DNA of 62,955 nt, filler included, from Reclinomonas americana ATCC 50394 (Eukaryota), in the NCBI GenBank assembly GCA_048213135.1. It is 7 parts of 4 records of this genome, joined end to end, with 100 filler letters (N's around TTAATTAATTAA, not from the genome) between each part and the next. Parts side by side here need not be neighbours in the genome. Positions count along the whole stretch, not along the records: positions 43,269 to 50,465 come from PS015227.1; positions 50,566 to 57,663 come from PS015227.1; positions 57,764 to 61,066 come from PS015228.1; 4 more parts are not named here. One strand, written 5' to 3'. Every line of letters starts with the position of its first letter. Position 1 is the stretch's first letter. The notes beneath the pieces were generated by a model. It was not told where the DNA came from. It did no database searches and saw nothing but the letters and a program-made list of their open reading frames with translations. Of the stretch, positions 43,269 through 59,958 are shown piece by piece. Made by a program: the position numbers and the translations under genes.

Positions 43269-44231
43269 GCACCATCTCCGGCAGGCACCGCGAATCCGCA
43301 TCCTCCAACTGCATCTCGTGCACAGCCTGCGCGGCCCGTCGTGCACTGTCGAGCTCCCAGCAGACCACGGCAAACGGCGAGGACGACATTCTAACAACGC
43401 CATCACGGCACCCGCTCACAACGTGCTGACCATCGCGAGTGACGGCCACAGCAGATCTAGACACCGCCTCCTCGCGTCCCTCGAATCGCCGCACTTCCTC
43501 CCCACTCACCAGCGACCACACTCTTATAGTTTGATCCAAGCTCCCACCCACATGCACGACGTGCTGGCTGTCGGCAGTGACGACCACACAGTGCACCCAC
43601 CCAGTGTACAAGTGGCCCTCCGGCTTCATCCGTCGCACCTCTTCGCCACTCTCCACGGACCACACCCTCACGGTGCTGTCACCACTCGCACTGACGATGT
43701 GCTGACCATCGGGAGTGACTGCGACACGCAGCATAGTTTCGGTGTGTCTCTCCAACCGTCGCACCGCCTCTCCGCTCGCCAGCGACCACACACGTACCGT
43801 TTTGTCAACGCTCCCACTCACAACATGCTGGCCATCGGGGGTCACGGCAACCGAGGTGACGAACGAGGTCGTGTCCCTCCCACCGTCGCACCTCCTCACC
43901 ACTCTCCACTGACCACACTTGCACCGCTCCGTCTCCACTTCCGCTCACCACGTGCTGCGCGTCGGGAGTGACAGCAACAGAGTGCACGCAGCCGAAATGC
44001 CCCTNNNNNNNNNNNNNNNNNNNNNNNNNNNNNNNNNNNNNNNNNNNNNNNNNNNNNNNNNNNNNNNNNNNNNNNNNNNNNNNNNNNNNNNNNNNNNNNN
44101 NNNNNNNNNNNNNNNNNNNNNNNNNNNNNNNNNNNNNNNNNNNNNNNNNNNNNNNNNTGCGTTGCTTCTTGGTGGAGGAGGCCGAGGTATTGGTATTCCG
44201 CTGCCGCACGGATCCCGATTTGCATTGGTGA
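43269..44231. pseudogene. WD40-tail family member 1: body on the minus strand (43269-44004), tail on the plus strand (44158-44231); frameshift near 43871
   Basis: The minus piece ends RCLPEMV-c and the plus piece starts tg-cgt-tgc (LRCFLVEEAE...DLHW*), an exact join if the contig is flipped. There is an extra base in gga cac g acc tcg. Confidence 0.65.
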
Positions 44232-44387
44232 GGCTGTATGAAAGTGAAAGCCACCTGCTTGATTCTTCCGCTTCTGCACACGCTCTCCAGCAACAAACAT
44301 AATCGGTGGAGACTTAAACACAGAACAAGACGTTGTCCCGTCACTCACTTTTCTCATTTCTCAAAGCGCTCCTCTCTTCCCGTTCTC

Positions 44388-45458
44388 ATGGCCTCCACTA
44401 CCCATCACATGTCCCTGGCTGGACACACTGACTCGGTGCTCTGCGTCGCTGTCTCTCCCAGTGGTGAATGCATTGTCAGCGGCAGTAGTGATAAGACAGT
44501 GCGAGTGTGGTCGATGGCCAGTGGCGCCGAGGTGCAGCGATTGGAGGGACACACTGCGTGGGTGCGTTCAGTCATCGTCACTCCCGATGGTCAGCATGTG
44601 GTGAGTGGGAGTGATGACGCGACTGTGCGAGTGTGGTCGCTGGCCAGTGGCGAGGAGGTGCGGCGGATGGAGGGGCATGCTGGCTTTGTGTACTCTGTTG
44701 CTGTCACTCGCGATGCGCAGCACGTGGTAAGCGGGAGTGAGGATTTGACGGTACGAGTGTGGTTACTGTCGACGGGTGAGGAGGTGCGACGATTCAAAGG
44801 GCATAATGGTGATGTGTGGTCTGTCGCCGTGACTCCCGACGGCGAACACGTGGTGAGTGGAAGTGCTGACAGGACTGTGCGTTTGTGGTCACTGGTGAGT
44901 GGCAAGGAGGTGCGCCGACTGGAGGGACACGGCGCGTGGGTGTTGGCGGTCACCGTCACTCCTGATGGTCAACACATTGTGAGCGGCAGTGCTGATATCA
45001 CAGTGCGAGTGTGGTCCATGGGGAGTGCAGTGGAAGTGCGGCGTTTGAAGGGGCACGTTGGCTGGGTGAATGCCGTCGCCGTCACTCCCGATGGACAACT
45101 TGTTGTCAGCGGCAGTGATGATGGAACGGTGCGCCTGTGGTCACTGACGAGTGGTGAGGAGGTGCGGCGGTTGGAGGGACGAGCGGAAGTGGTGACTGCC
45201 GTTGCCATCTCCTCTGACGGACGTCGACGCATTGTCAGTGGCTGCAATGACGGCGAAGTGTACGTGTGGTCCTCGACATACGCCAGTGCCTGTGACGAAC
45301 TCGACAGTGGACGACGGGCCATGCAGGCTGTGCGGGAAATGCAGCCGGAGGATGCAGATTCGCGGTGCCTGCCGGAGATGGTGCTGCGGTGTTTCATGGT
45401 GGAGGAGGCTGAAGTCGTGGTATTCCGCTGCAGCTCGAATCCTGATCTGCACTGGTGA
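44388..45458 (+). CDS. WD40-tail family member 2: intronless, 7 WD40 repeats + conserved C-terminal tail (356 aa)
   Basis: Seven GH..V.SVAVTPDG..VVSGS.D.TVRVW repeats, then ..RCLPEMVLRCFMVEEAE..FRC..PDLHW. Confidence 0.9.
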   Translation: MASTTHHMSLAGHTDSVLCVAVSPSGECIVSGSSDKTVRVWSMASGAEVQRLEGHTAWVRSVIVTPDGQHVVSGSDDATVRVWSLASGEEVRRMEGHAGFVYSVAVTRDAQHVVSGSEDLTVRVWLLSTGEEVRRFKGHNGDVWSVAVTPDGEHVVSGSADRTVRLWSLVSGKEVRRLEGHGAWVLAVTVTPDGQHIVSGSADITVRVWSMGSAVEVRRLKGHVGWVNAVAVTPDGQLVVSGSDDGTVRLWSLTSGEEVRRLEGRAEVVTAVAISSDGRRRIVSGCNDGEVYVWSSTYASACDELDSGRRAMQAVREMQPEDADSRCLPEMVLRCFMVEEAEVVVFRCSSNPDLHW

Positions 45459-45622
45459 GGCTGTATGAAAGTGAAAGCCGCCTTGACAGCCTTGTTCTCC
45501 CCCTCTGTGCTCTCTATCAACCAATACACAGAAGCGTGGGTGACTTCATCAGCAGTGCACGAACGACGAACGCAAGTCGGTGTCAGGGTGTCCTTCTCCT
45601 CACTTGCTCCCGCCCCCTACCC

Positions 45623-57570: not shown

Positions 57571-57763
57571 CTCTCAAATTTTGTGCTGTTCCGTGCCTCG
57601 TGCAAGTTGAAGGCTGTGTCACAATTGTCGCTTCGCCAAACTGCCGCCTCGCTTGCTCGTTCTNNNNNNNNNNNNNNNNNNNNNNNNNNNNNNNNNNNNN
57701 NNNNNNNTTAATTAATTAANNNNNNNNNNNNNNNNNNNNNNNNNNNNNNNNNNNNNNNNNNNN

Positions 57764-58559
57764 CCAGACGTCGCACCTCGTCGCCACTCGCCAGCGACCA
57801 CACACGCACCGTCTGGTCATCGCTCCCGCTGACGAGGAACTGACCATCGGGAGTGACGGCGACTGATCGCACCCAGTCAGCATGACCCTTCAACTGTCGC
57901 ACCTCTTCACCACTCGACAACGACCACACGCGCATTGTGCAATCAGCGCTGCCACTCACCACATAAAGACCATCGGGTGAGACAGTCACAGACACCACCG
58001 AGGCAGTGTGCCCCTCCATCCGTCGCATTGCCTTGCCAGTGGCCAGAGACCACACTCGCACTGTGTAGTCATCACTCCCACTCACCACGTACTGACCATC
58101 GGGCGTGACAGCCACGCACAGAACCCAGTTCGTGTGTCCCTTCAACCGTCGAACACATTTTCCACTCGCCAGTGACCACAGCCGCACACAGTCGTCGCCA
58201 CTTCCGCTCACCACGTGCAGGCTGTCGGGGGTGATGGCGAGACAGCACAAGTCCGCAGTGAAAGCAATCTGTCGCACCTCTTTGCCACTCGCCACCGACC
58301 ACACTCGCACTGTCTTGTCGTCACCTCCGCTCACAATGTGCTGGCCGTCGGGAGTGACGACGATGGAACACACCCCGTGTGTGTGTCCCTCCAGTCGACG
58401 CACTTCTTCGCCACTCGCCAGCGACCACACACGCACTGTCTTGTCATTGCTTCCACTGACGATTTGTTGACCGTCGGGAGTGATGGTGACAGAATACACC
58501 GTGCGCCTGTGACCGCGCAGGGTTCTACAGAAGAGTACTGAGGGATGAGAAAAAGACAT
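57764..58559 (-). CDS. WD40-tail family member 9 (3' partial, at least 6 repeats)
   Basis: MSFSHPSVLFCRTLRGH leader and six WD repeats, then a gap. Confidence 0.85.
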
Positions 58560-58682
58560 GGGAGGGAGAGGCGTATTTGCGTGCGAGACGGAGACGGATG
58601 AACGAGTGATCATGGGACTGTCTCGACGTTTCAACCCCGCCTTCTTCTATAACAACACTTCATTACTTCCCCCCCAAAGACC

Positions 58683-59958
58683 TCACAGGTGCAGCATGGG
58701 ATCCGCGCCGCATCGAAAGTGCAACATACTGGCCTCCTCCAATATAAAGCACCGCAGCACTTGCTCTGGCAGGCAGCGGCGATCGACTTCCTCACCGCTC
58801 TCCTCCGCTTGCAGCTGCTGCACGGCGAGCATTGCCGAGCGTGCAGCATCCACCTCAAACCTGGCGAGGCCGCAAGGTGTGGACCACACATGCACGTCCA
58901 CGCCACCACAAACAATGTGCTGCCCGTCGGGAGCGACATCCACAGACATTACAAAACCAATGTCGCCTGCCAGACGTCGCACCTCTTTGCCACTCGCCAG
59001 TGACCAGATACGCACAGTGTCGTCATTGCTACCGCTGACAACGAATAGACCATCGGGCGTGACAGCAACTGCTCGCACCCACCCAGTGTGACCCTCCAAC
59101 CGTCGCACCTCATCTCCGCTCTTCAGCGACCACACGCGCACTGTGCGATCATAGCTGCCACTCACCACAAACAGACCATCGGGTGAGACAGCAACAGACC
59201 CCACCATGTCAGTGTGCCCCTCCATCCGTCGCACTTCCTCGCCACTCGCGAGCGACCACACGCGCACTGTCTGGTCAAAACTCCCACTCACCACGTACTG
59301 CCCGTCGGATGTAACAGCAATTGACATCACAGAGGCAGTGTGCCCCTTCAATCGACACACCTCTTTCCCACTCGCCAGCGACCGCACCAGCACACAATCG
59401 CCACCACTTCCGCTCACCACGTGCAGACTGTCGGGGGTGATGGCGAGACAGCAAAAGTCTCCAGNNNNNNNNNNNNNNNNNNNNNNNNNNNNNNNNNNNN
59501 NNNNNNNNNNNNNNNNNNNNNNNNNNNNNNNNNNNNNNNNNNNNNNNNNNNNNNNNNNNNNNNNNNNNNNNNNNNNNNNNNNNNNNNNNNNNNNNNNNNN
59601 NNNNNNNNNNNNNNNNNNNNNNNNNNNNNNNNNNNNNNNNCATCCCTCCCTCTCCCTCCCATGTCTTTCGCTCATCCCTCAGTACTCTTCCGCAGAACCC
59701 TGCGTGGACACAGACGGGAGGTGCACTCAGTCGCCGTCACTCCCGACGGTCAACAAATCATCAGTGGTGGCGACGACAAGACAGTGCGTGTGTGGTCACT
59801 GGCGAGTGGCAAAGTGCGACAGCTGAAAGGACACGCATACGCGGTGTGTTCCGTCGTCGTCACTCCCGATGGTCAGCAAGTTGTGAGTGGGAGGTCGGAC
59901 GGAGTCATTCGAGTGTCGTCACTGGCAAGTGGCGAGGAAGTGCGACAGATGAAGTACA
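58683..59958 (-). CDS. WD40-tail family member 10; its 5' part (59661-59958) is assembled on the plus strand
   Basis: The plus piece ends atg aag tac a and the minus piece starts ct gga gac, giving MKYTGDFCC and matching the paralog IAFTADLCC. Seven repeats in total; tail RCLPEQVLRCFILEEAS..FRC. Confidence 0.8.

Follow-up and report, generated by a model that had tools for sequence, protein, structure and literature searches.

We analysed a 62,955-nucleotide stretch of DNA (hereafter the window) from Reclinomonas americana ATCC 50394 (assembly GCA_048213135.1), in which ten copies of one gene family are found between positions 43269 and 59958. In its complete form the gene encodes a single seven-blade WD40 propeller followed by a short conserved C-terminal tail; four sites per blade on the top face of the propeller show moderately supported diversifying selection, and purifying selection acts on the helices of the tail. 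The scaffolds of the window are joined by 100-base artificial linkers (N44-TTAATTAATTAA-N44), which carry stops in all six frames and lie at six positions. The region 43269–59958 spans three scaffolds, A (43269–50465), B (50566–57663) and C (57764–61066), with three, five and two copies, respectively. A preceding inspection, hereafter the sequence-only reading, described a cluster of about ten genes: the ten copies, each recognised by its tail or propeller, are present, but they are distributed over three scaffolds across artificial linkers and do not form one locus. Unrelated intron-bearing genes separate the three arrays from one another. Repeated gene families are common to neighbouring scaffolds across the linkers.

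Four copies are complete, another is intact apart from its division by a probably flipped contig, two are frameshifted and three are cut by gaps or scaffold ends (Table 1). The complete copies (A2, B2, B3 and B4) have uninterrupted open reading frames of the length reported before (356–359 amino acids), and the three tail subfamilies are also present. Copy A1 is degenerate, with a frameshifting insertion of 1 nucleotide near 43861 and several in-frame insertions, and B5 is probably a pseudogene because of its frameshifts. Concerning orientation, two pieces stand opposite to the rest as assembled: the end of the minus-strand piece 43269–44004 reads in frame into 44158 (+), and that of the plus-strand piece 59641–59958 into 59464 (-), in both cases with zero bases missing. 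Based on this continuity, both pieces are probably contigs flipped by the scaffolder. If so, all three arrays are most likely purely head-to-tail, as first described, C1 is an intact seven-repeat gene, and some of the members that had been called disrupted are assembly effects. Another short contig (29495–30107) is also likely flipped; claims drawn from orientation are unsafe in this assembly.

Table 1. Positions in the window of the family copies, the reference tail and the artificial linkers
Feature	Position	Strand	Remarks
Copy A1, body (last blades and first part of tail)	43269–44004	-	5' end missing; contig probably flipped
Copy A1, tail end (..DLHW stop)	44158–44231	+	In-frame continuation of flipped piece
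Copy A2, complete, 356 aa, 7 WD40 and tail (..DLHW)	44388–45458	+	
Reference tail (A2)	45267–45455	+	Predicted helix, acidic variable loop, helix
Copy A3, 6 repeats visible and tail (..NLHW)	45623–46566	+	38-N gap at 45829–45866
Copy B1, tail ..CLQL	50566–51168	+	Scaffold start cuts 5' end; 20-N gap in tail
Copy B2, complete, 359 aa (..CMHL)	51344–52423	+	
Copy B3, complete, 356 aa (..CLRL)	52591–53661	+	
Copy B4, complete, 357 aa (..CLRL)	53843–54916	+	Closest pair with B3, 83% DNA identity
Copy B5, 7 repeats and tail	55087–56142	+	Frameshifts near 55711 and near 55934–55961
Copy C2, 6 repeats	57764–58559	-	Scaffold edge cuts 3' end
Copy C1, blades 3–7 and tail (..PMLHL)	58683–59464	-	
Copy C1, N-terminal part (blades 1–2)	59661–59958	+	Small contig probably flipped in place; joins 59464 (-) in frame
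Linker 5' of array A	43169–43268	.	Artificial, N44-TTAATTAATTAA-N44
Linker separating arrays A and B	50466–50565	.	Artificial
Linker separating arrays B and C	57664–57763	.	Artificial
Linkers outside or flanking the arrays	10139–10238, 29395–29494, 61067–61166	.	Artificial, six-frame stop

No intron interrupts the copies, in agreement with the sequence-only reading, and GT..AG introns occur in the genes beside them on these contigs. The spacers measure 123–181 nucleotides (about 125–180 had been estimated), and those of array B are homologous among copies; homologous gene-plus-spacer units are the pattern expected if such units duplicate by unequal crossing-over. Since all spacers are shorter than 185 nucleotides, each must accommodate a 3' end, a promoter and a 5' untranslated region, or else the arrays are co-transcribed. 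A TGTA..ATGAA-like motif, a candidate polyadenylation signal, lies 6–70 nucleotides past the stop in seven of the eight copies checked (spacers after A1, A2, B1–B4 and C1; e.g. 54917–55086). The copies are 66–83% identical in DNA and are therefore paralogues, not the duplicated haplotypes that had been considered as an objection. A second objection, contaminant scaffolds, does not agree with the contigs that the copies share with intron-bearing genes: A3 and B5 each continue into such genes without a gap. The G+C content at third codon positions (GC3) is 0.64–0.65 in the copies and 0.68–0.80 in three flanking exons.

The full protein was modelled with AlphaFold2 from an 11-sequence alignment. 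The predicted structure is a closed seven-blade propeller, for which the predicted local distance difference test (pLDDT) is mostly above 90, and its best structural match is the bacterial PkwA propeller 5yzv (root-mean-square deviation 1.0 Å over 287 columns, 44% identity). Residues 5–11, formerly taken for part of a leader of about 10 amino acids, are predicted as a strand, the closing strand of the propeller. Seven WD40 stretches are found by Pfam in each of the four complete copies, so the proposed number of exactly seven holds for these, but only six are visible in A3 around its gap. The term 'highly self-similar' was an overstatement, as the mean internal repeat identity of the protein is 0.51–0.59 per complete copy. 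According to sections of Hu et al. 2017 (PMC5587647), Highly-Repetitive WD40 proteins have an internal identity of at least 0.7, and Moderately-Repetitive ones have at least six repeats with pairwise identities of at least 0.4. The means of the family lie below the first cut-off; B4 belongs to the second class with a minimum of 0.42 across all seven repeats, and the pairwise minima of A2, B2 and B3 are 0.38–0.39 with all seven repeats counted.

Neither a signal peptide nor a membrane segment is found in the protein (maximum 19-residue hydropathy 1.0–1.3); both were rejected as candidates, which points to a cytosolic location. There is no Walker A motif in the six frames of 43269–61066, no catalytic domain (Pfam matches shown for the four complete copies are all of WD40 type) and no WDxR/DWD motif of the DDB1-binding WD40 proteins (DCAF) in any of the four complete copies. 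Looking at housekeeping WD40 families, the Pfam scores of WDR5 and THOC3 are below cut-off in the complete copies, and the cut-offs of WDR3, WDHD1 and certain other propeller models are passed only by multi-stretch generic matches on a single propeller of 356 amino acids. The copies thus group with none of WDR3, WDR5, THOC3 and G-beta, and their top homologues are repetitive metagenomic WD40 proteins.

The variable face was analysed with 43 gap-free canonical repeats out of 54 detected (44 after relaxing one pattern position; the rest were dropped). In the 43 gap-free repeats, entropy peaks (3.2–3.6 bits) at positions 5, 7, 23 and 25, which flank the invariant V6 and the near-invariant D24. 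These positions are the equivalents of the HET-E pairs (7,9) and (25,27); in excerpts of Paoletti et al. (PMC1805685), the same codons of HET-E repeats are described as positively selected, paired around a conserved residue and located on the top face of the propeller. The four-residue top-face code is unique in all 44 repeats. Selection was assessed with our own implementation of a Goldman–Yang (GY)-type codon model, on a repeat tree built without the four hot columns. The ratio of non-synonymous to synonymous rates (omega) is 3.1 at the four positions and 0.26 elsewhere, and twice the log-likelihood difference against omega = 1 is 70. Site by site the best values at positions 5, 7, 23 and 25 are 3, 5, 5 and 2, respectively, and all remaining sites stay at or below 1; at loop positions 3 and 4 omega is about 1. 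For the 26 repeats of intact genes the four-site omega is 4.2 (likelihood-ratio test, LRT, 46), and with a tree from all columns it is 1.9 (LRT 22). Simulations under omega = 1 (n = 14) gave values of 0.89–1.84 and an LRT of at most 16.7, which shows an upward bias of the method; none of the 14 reached 3.1.

Diversifying selection at the four top-face sites has moderate support on these grounds, and there are several points on the other side. The estimate depends on the tree, the all-column value of 1.9 being close to the top null value, and control positions 3, 4, 16 and 17 give an omega of 1.33 (LRT 4.4). The codon model is without recombination among repeats, which can inflate omega, and variable hotspot sites are, according to PMC5587647, a general trait of repetitive WD40 proteins. 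The four sites were fixed after the entropies had been seen, and in the raw counts the proportions of non-synonymous (pN) and synonymous (pS) differences at the hot sites hardly differ, both being near saturation.

As for the mode of diversification, the HET-E-like one suggested before (near-identical repeats and concerted evolution) is not supported: repeats are not homogenised within a gene, and concerted evolution of that style was rejected. The DNA identity of repeats is 0.714 within genes and 0.704–0.710 for different blades of different genes, and only 4 of 44 repeats have their nearest neighbour within their own gene. Recent duplicates still show which blade corresponds to which (excess 0.115, p 0.001), a signal that has almost vanished between subfamilies (0.009, p 0.048). 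This pattern and the missing homogenisation would fit a repeat that was amplified once in an ancestor, possibly with slow exchange across the family, before whole genes were duplicated.

The tail extends 60–63 amino acids past the last Trp, rather than the roughly 55 counted at first. In the full-length model its helices (297–317 and 325–350) have a pLDDT of about 60; modelled alone, it is a two-helix hairpin with a mean pLDDT of 84. The residues E, V, L, LRCF, E and R are invariant across the ten tails. Purifying selection on the two helices is seen in six tails (omega 0.46 for the first and 0.20 for the second, 0.30 combined); together with the framework omega of 0.26, at a synonymous divergence (dS) of about 0.8, this value indicates that the proteins are maintained. 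A tail profile run against the six frames of the window gives 11 significant frames, all within arrays A–C. Intact subfamily-B tails end in C-x-x-L (CLQL 51157–51168, CMHL 52412–52423, CLRL 53650–53661 and CLRL 54905–54916), as they lack five residues that subfamilies A and C have. This end resembles a CaaX prenylation end, but its third residue is polar. The CaaX, peroxisomal targeting signal 1 (PTS1) and HbYX readings of the C-terminus were set aside, as none is conserved across subfamilies.

The tail has no match in Pfam, among PDB sequences or by fold beyond generic hairpins, so the concern that it might belong to a housekeeping WD40 family is not borne out. A PADLOC search gave no match and a word-index search with the A2 tail no result; a tail pattern had 8 and 10 matches in metagenome and viral contigs, respectively, none of them confirmed. 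In the ESM Atlas one search with the tail returned nothing and another only scores of at most 0.78, which is chance level. Structural comparisons of the tail model yielded generic hairpins: Foldseek against PDB and viral structures gave none at E<=0.001, and VIA-align had a best Z of 7.5 with no stand-out. F-box, SOCS and VHL chains are not among the fold matches listed, which excludes nothing.

Concerning relatives, 820 full-protein homologues were found among 7,998 scored; the best 120 of the 820 align over the propeller and are for the most part repetitive WD40 proteins of bacterial style from metagenomes, and the tail profile detects no tail in these 120 (best E 0.055). Against 1.84 billion representatives, the tail profile matched three proteins (P0121, P0122 and P0123), and in all three the tail is C-terminal to the propeller. 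P0121 (E 3e-20) comprises the last blade and the tail, and is a Reclinomonas americana expressed sequence tag (EST) in EukProt; it is 54–66% identical to five of the six copies compared (47% to C1 in a gapped alignment) and has the repeat style of the window copies. This match is a family member, though not a transcript of the window copies themselves, and shows that a jakobid transcribes the family; the earlier worry about untranscribed copies falls away at the family level. P0122 and P0123 are Logan proteins with divergent propellers: whole-protein identity is 22–29% in long alignments, whereas the tails are 43% (P0122) and 35% (P0123) identical, which makes the tail the more conserved part. 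The blades of both are degenerate and non-repetitive, so the tail rides on non-repetitive members too. A search for longer tail-bearing proteins, of the size of NOD-like receptors (NLRs), returned only P0122 and P0123 again, a weak negative.

Among known systems, the closest likeness is with the HNWD/NWD NLRs of Podospora anserina (HET-D, HET-E and HET-R). According to the excerpts of PMC1805685, these share with the family a repetitive WD40 propeller, selection at the same four top-face positions arranged as two pairs around a conserved residue, and a multigene organisation with pseudogenes; positive selection at four top-face codons is found here with an omega of 1.9–4.2, compared with about 0.26 elsewhere (LRT 22–70). 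The family differs in having no NACHT domain (no Walker A, as above, the 5' ends of A1 and B1 being missing) and no HET or other N-terminal effector domain, since complete copies begin with the closing strand of the propeller. It consists of one seven-blade ring with a C-terminal hairpin, its repeat number is fixed at seven wherever countable, and its repeats are 51–59% alike, compared with up to 100% in HNWD proteins as given in the same excerpts. It diversifies by whole-gene tandem duplication, without within-gene homogenisation. That the family stands alone without NACHT, evolves by birth and death and joins a variable face to a constant tail is supported by the missing Walker A motif, omega above 1 at four sites, the tail omega of 0.30 and two frameshifted copies out of ten.

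Bacterial-style self-similar repeats, intact tetrads and variable hotspot residues are shared with the Moderately- and Highly-Repetitive WD40 proteins, as far as sections of PMC5587647 describe them (PkwA, 5yzv); the family lies below the Highly-Repetitive value of 0.7, carries an orphan tail (none in the best 120 of 820 homologues) and, unlike the bacterial proteins, is arranged in eukaryotic tandem arrays. The ankyrin-repeat (ANK)-PRANC proteins of poxviruses and Orientia also place a short constant helical C-terminal module behind a variable repeat binder, and show a weak LP-x-x-hydrophobic likeness; in extracts of PMC4353913, a C-terminal truncated F-box of poxvirus ANK proteins, cut to two or even one helix, binds Skp1. 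Compared with ANK-PRANC and SOCS-box proteins, the family has WD40 instead of ANK repeats, is host-encoded, lacks key box residues and gives no F-box, PRANC, SOCS or VHL profile match. Tandem birth-and-death is shared with the unstable F-box genes of Caenorhabditis, which extracts of PMC8665587 describe as receptors proposed to track foreign proteins; both are lineage-specific and combine a variable domain with a constant one, a putative adaptor in the present case, but the family has no recognisable F-box, is intronless and carries its constant module at the C-terminus. A literature search, limited to open-access papers, found no description of the family. It is best described as a family of probable receptors with variable repeats, whose constant module is unclassified and whose components are familiar.

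The layout of a rigid scaffold with a selected face, a short conserved tail, no catalytic domain and no targeting signal suggests a substrate receptor. In the mechanism that we propose, gene-plus-spacer units duplicate in tandem, some copies die and the four top-face positions of each blade have been driven apart across paralogues; the variable faces would bind many different ligands in the cytosol, such as foreign or fast-changing proteins. All members would engage the same conserved partner of the host through their constant tail hairpin; the likeliest candidate is an adaptor of cullin ubiquitin ligases, by which the bound proteins would be destroyed. We hold the two-sided core of this proposal, in which the faces take many ligands and the tails a single conserved partner, to be evenly poised. 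The identity of the partner is its least certain part: within the two-sided explanation, a cullin-ligase adaptor falls slightly short of even likelihood, the remainder going to another conserved docking partner. A broader version is distinctly tentative, namely that the family may be a germline-encoded library of antibody-like cytosolic propellers directed at viruses, endosymbionts and prey-derived invaders, whose tail, a new class of adaptor box (not F-box, SOCS box or H-box), would route targets to destruction or alarm.

The adaptor is put forward as the likeliest partner on account of the ANK-PRANC-like architecture, the birth-and-death resembling that of nematode F-box genes and an LP-x-x-hydrophobic motif. 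WSB1 and WSB2, which are WD40-SOCS-box proteins, likewise combine a repeat domain with a C-terminal adaptor box. The F-box consensus has an LP-x-E-hydrophobic motif in its first helix and a later Leu two turns on; helix 2 of the tail opens with a pattern resembling a truncated F-box of this consensus, in which L is invariant and the hydrophobic spacing fits. A number of results argue the other way. The Pro of the motif is present in five of the ten tails, the other five (subfamily B) and P0123 having Val, and the position of the usual F-box Leu is acidic. The tail model is a straight two-helix hairpin, whereas F-box and SOCS boxes have short, kinked helices. None of the ten tails matches the F-box, PRANC, SOCS or VHL models of Pfam at E<=10, in a search where HMMER filters drop weak matches, and a PDB sequence search of the tail has no match (best E 1.1). 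In SOCS and VHL boxes, a BC box with a Leu four residues before Cys/Ala precedes a cullin box; the spacing and the phi-P-x-x-phi-x-x-x-phi pattern fit in the tails, but the position of the BC-box Leu is of S/N/A/T type and there is no Pfam match. Modelling the tail in complex with a metagenomic Skp1 (L023), with alignments not used and the fold of the tail itself uncertain, gave a score of 0.02, which speaks neither for nor against binding. If the tail is a ligase adaptor box, it would thus not be a canonical one.

As a separate observation on Skp1, well-conserved Skp1-like genes are found on contigs L001–L004 (viral, 1.8–2.5 Mb), L005 and L007, all of giant-virus size; those of L001–L003 have apparent introns near the 3' end. 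The giant-virus-sized contig L006 carries an Elongin C-like gene.

Other explanations of the same family were weighed against the two-sided receptor. The copies may be free-standing WD40 sensors detached from NACHT/NB-ARC receptors, with a tail that couples them to a helper NLR or a cell-death effector in immunity or self/non-self recognition, which we consider unlikely. The selected sites are those of the HET-E/HNWD sensors, as far as the excerpts cited above report them, and the repeat type matches bacterial-like STAND-associated proteins among the top matches (e.g. P0012 and P0013); however, neither the three arrays nor the sequence next to them contains a NACHT/NB-ARC motif, the repeats are not homogenised as in HNWD genes, and the tail was seen on no longer, NLR-sized protein, a weak negative, with the missing 5' ends of A1 and B1 leaving a fusion possible there. 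Rather improbable is an association of tails with one another, by which paralogues would form homo- or hetero-oligomers acting as multivalent binders or sequestering targets directly, with no downstream machine. The predicted generic coiled-hairpin geometry with small conserved Ala/Cys would suit it, as would the less confident placement of the tail in the full model (pLDDT about 60), expected of a partner-stabilised element; an outside partner, however, would account equally well for the strong conservation of the tail over distant homologues with very different propellers.

A largely neutral or selfish expansion, in which a stable propeller is amplified by unequal crossing-over, the top-face sites are unconstrained (omega about 1) and most copies are redundant, ranks slightly lower again. 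Homologous gene-plus-spacer units, two frameshifted copies out of ten, several degenerate blades, the near-saturated pN about equal to pS and the all-column omega near the null range are all compatible with it; the constraint on framework (0.26) and tail (0.30) at a dS of about 0.8, the contrast between positions 3 and 4 (omega about 1) and the four hot sites (2–5), and the EST speak against it. Bacterial contamination or haplotypes assembled side by side, to which the lack of introns, the mostly bacterial-style metagenomic WD40 proteins among the propeller matches listed, the lower GC3 and the fragmented assembly with flipped contigs might point, is already largely refuted and hardly credible, given the gap-free runs of A3 and B5 into intron-bearing genes, the 66–83% identity, and a tail whose best match is a jakobid EST and which none of the best 120 of 820 propeller matches carries.

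Outside the arrays, the window contains several further genes. A very long protein, probably surface or secreted, with FN3/PhoD_N-like repeats is encoded at 1–11600 (-), and the start of a related-looking secreted gene lies near 60414 (+). An intron-rich gene at 12700–17700 (+), with no Pfam match in the one exon frame scanned, resembles a GH5 endoglycoceramidase in its motifs. Two tandem copies of an intron-rich gene at 23300–30650 encode a predicted secreted protein with C-terminal Cys-rich EGF/laminin-like repeats (no Pfam match in the two exon frames scanned). At 31100–36250 (+) there is, by eye, a CLC-type chloride channel/transporter gene with a weak CBS domain match.

To our knowledge, almost nothing is known about the recognition of intracellular intruders in free-living bacterivorous flagellates, and jakobids are one of the deepest eukaryotic branches. 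That the four positions selected here are also those of fungal HET-E, although architecture and lineage are unrelated, suggests that WD40 binder repertoires arise by a convergent rule. With its compact, intronless and probably very stable seven-blade scaffold and four selected positions in each blade, the family lends itself to expression and screening, which opens the question to direct tests. The tail, a module not classified before, has persisted longer than the sequence of the propeller itself, and the identification of its partner could establish a new type of adaptor box. If the ligase reading is true, immunity by receptor expansion, as with the F-box genes of nematodes and plants, would extend to Discoba.

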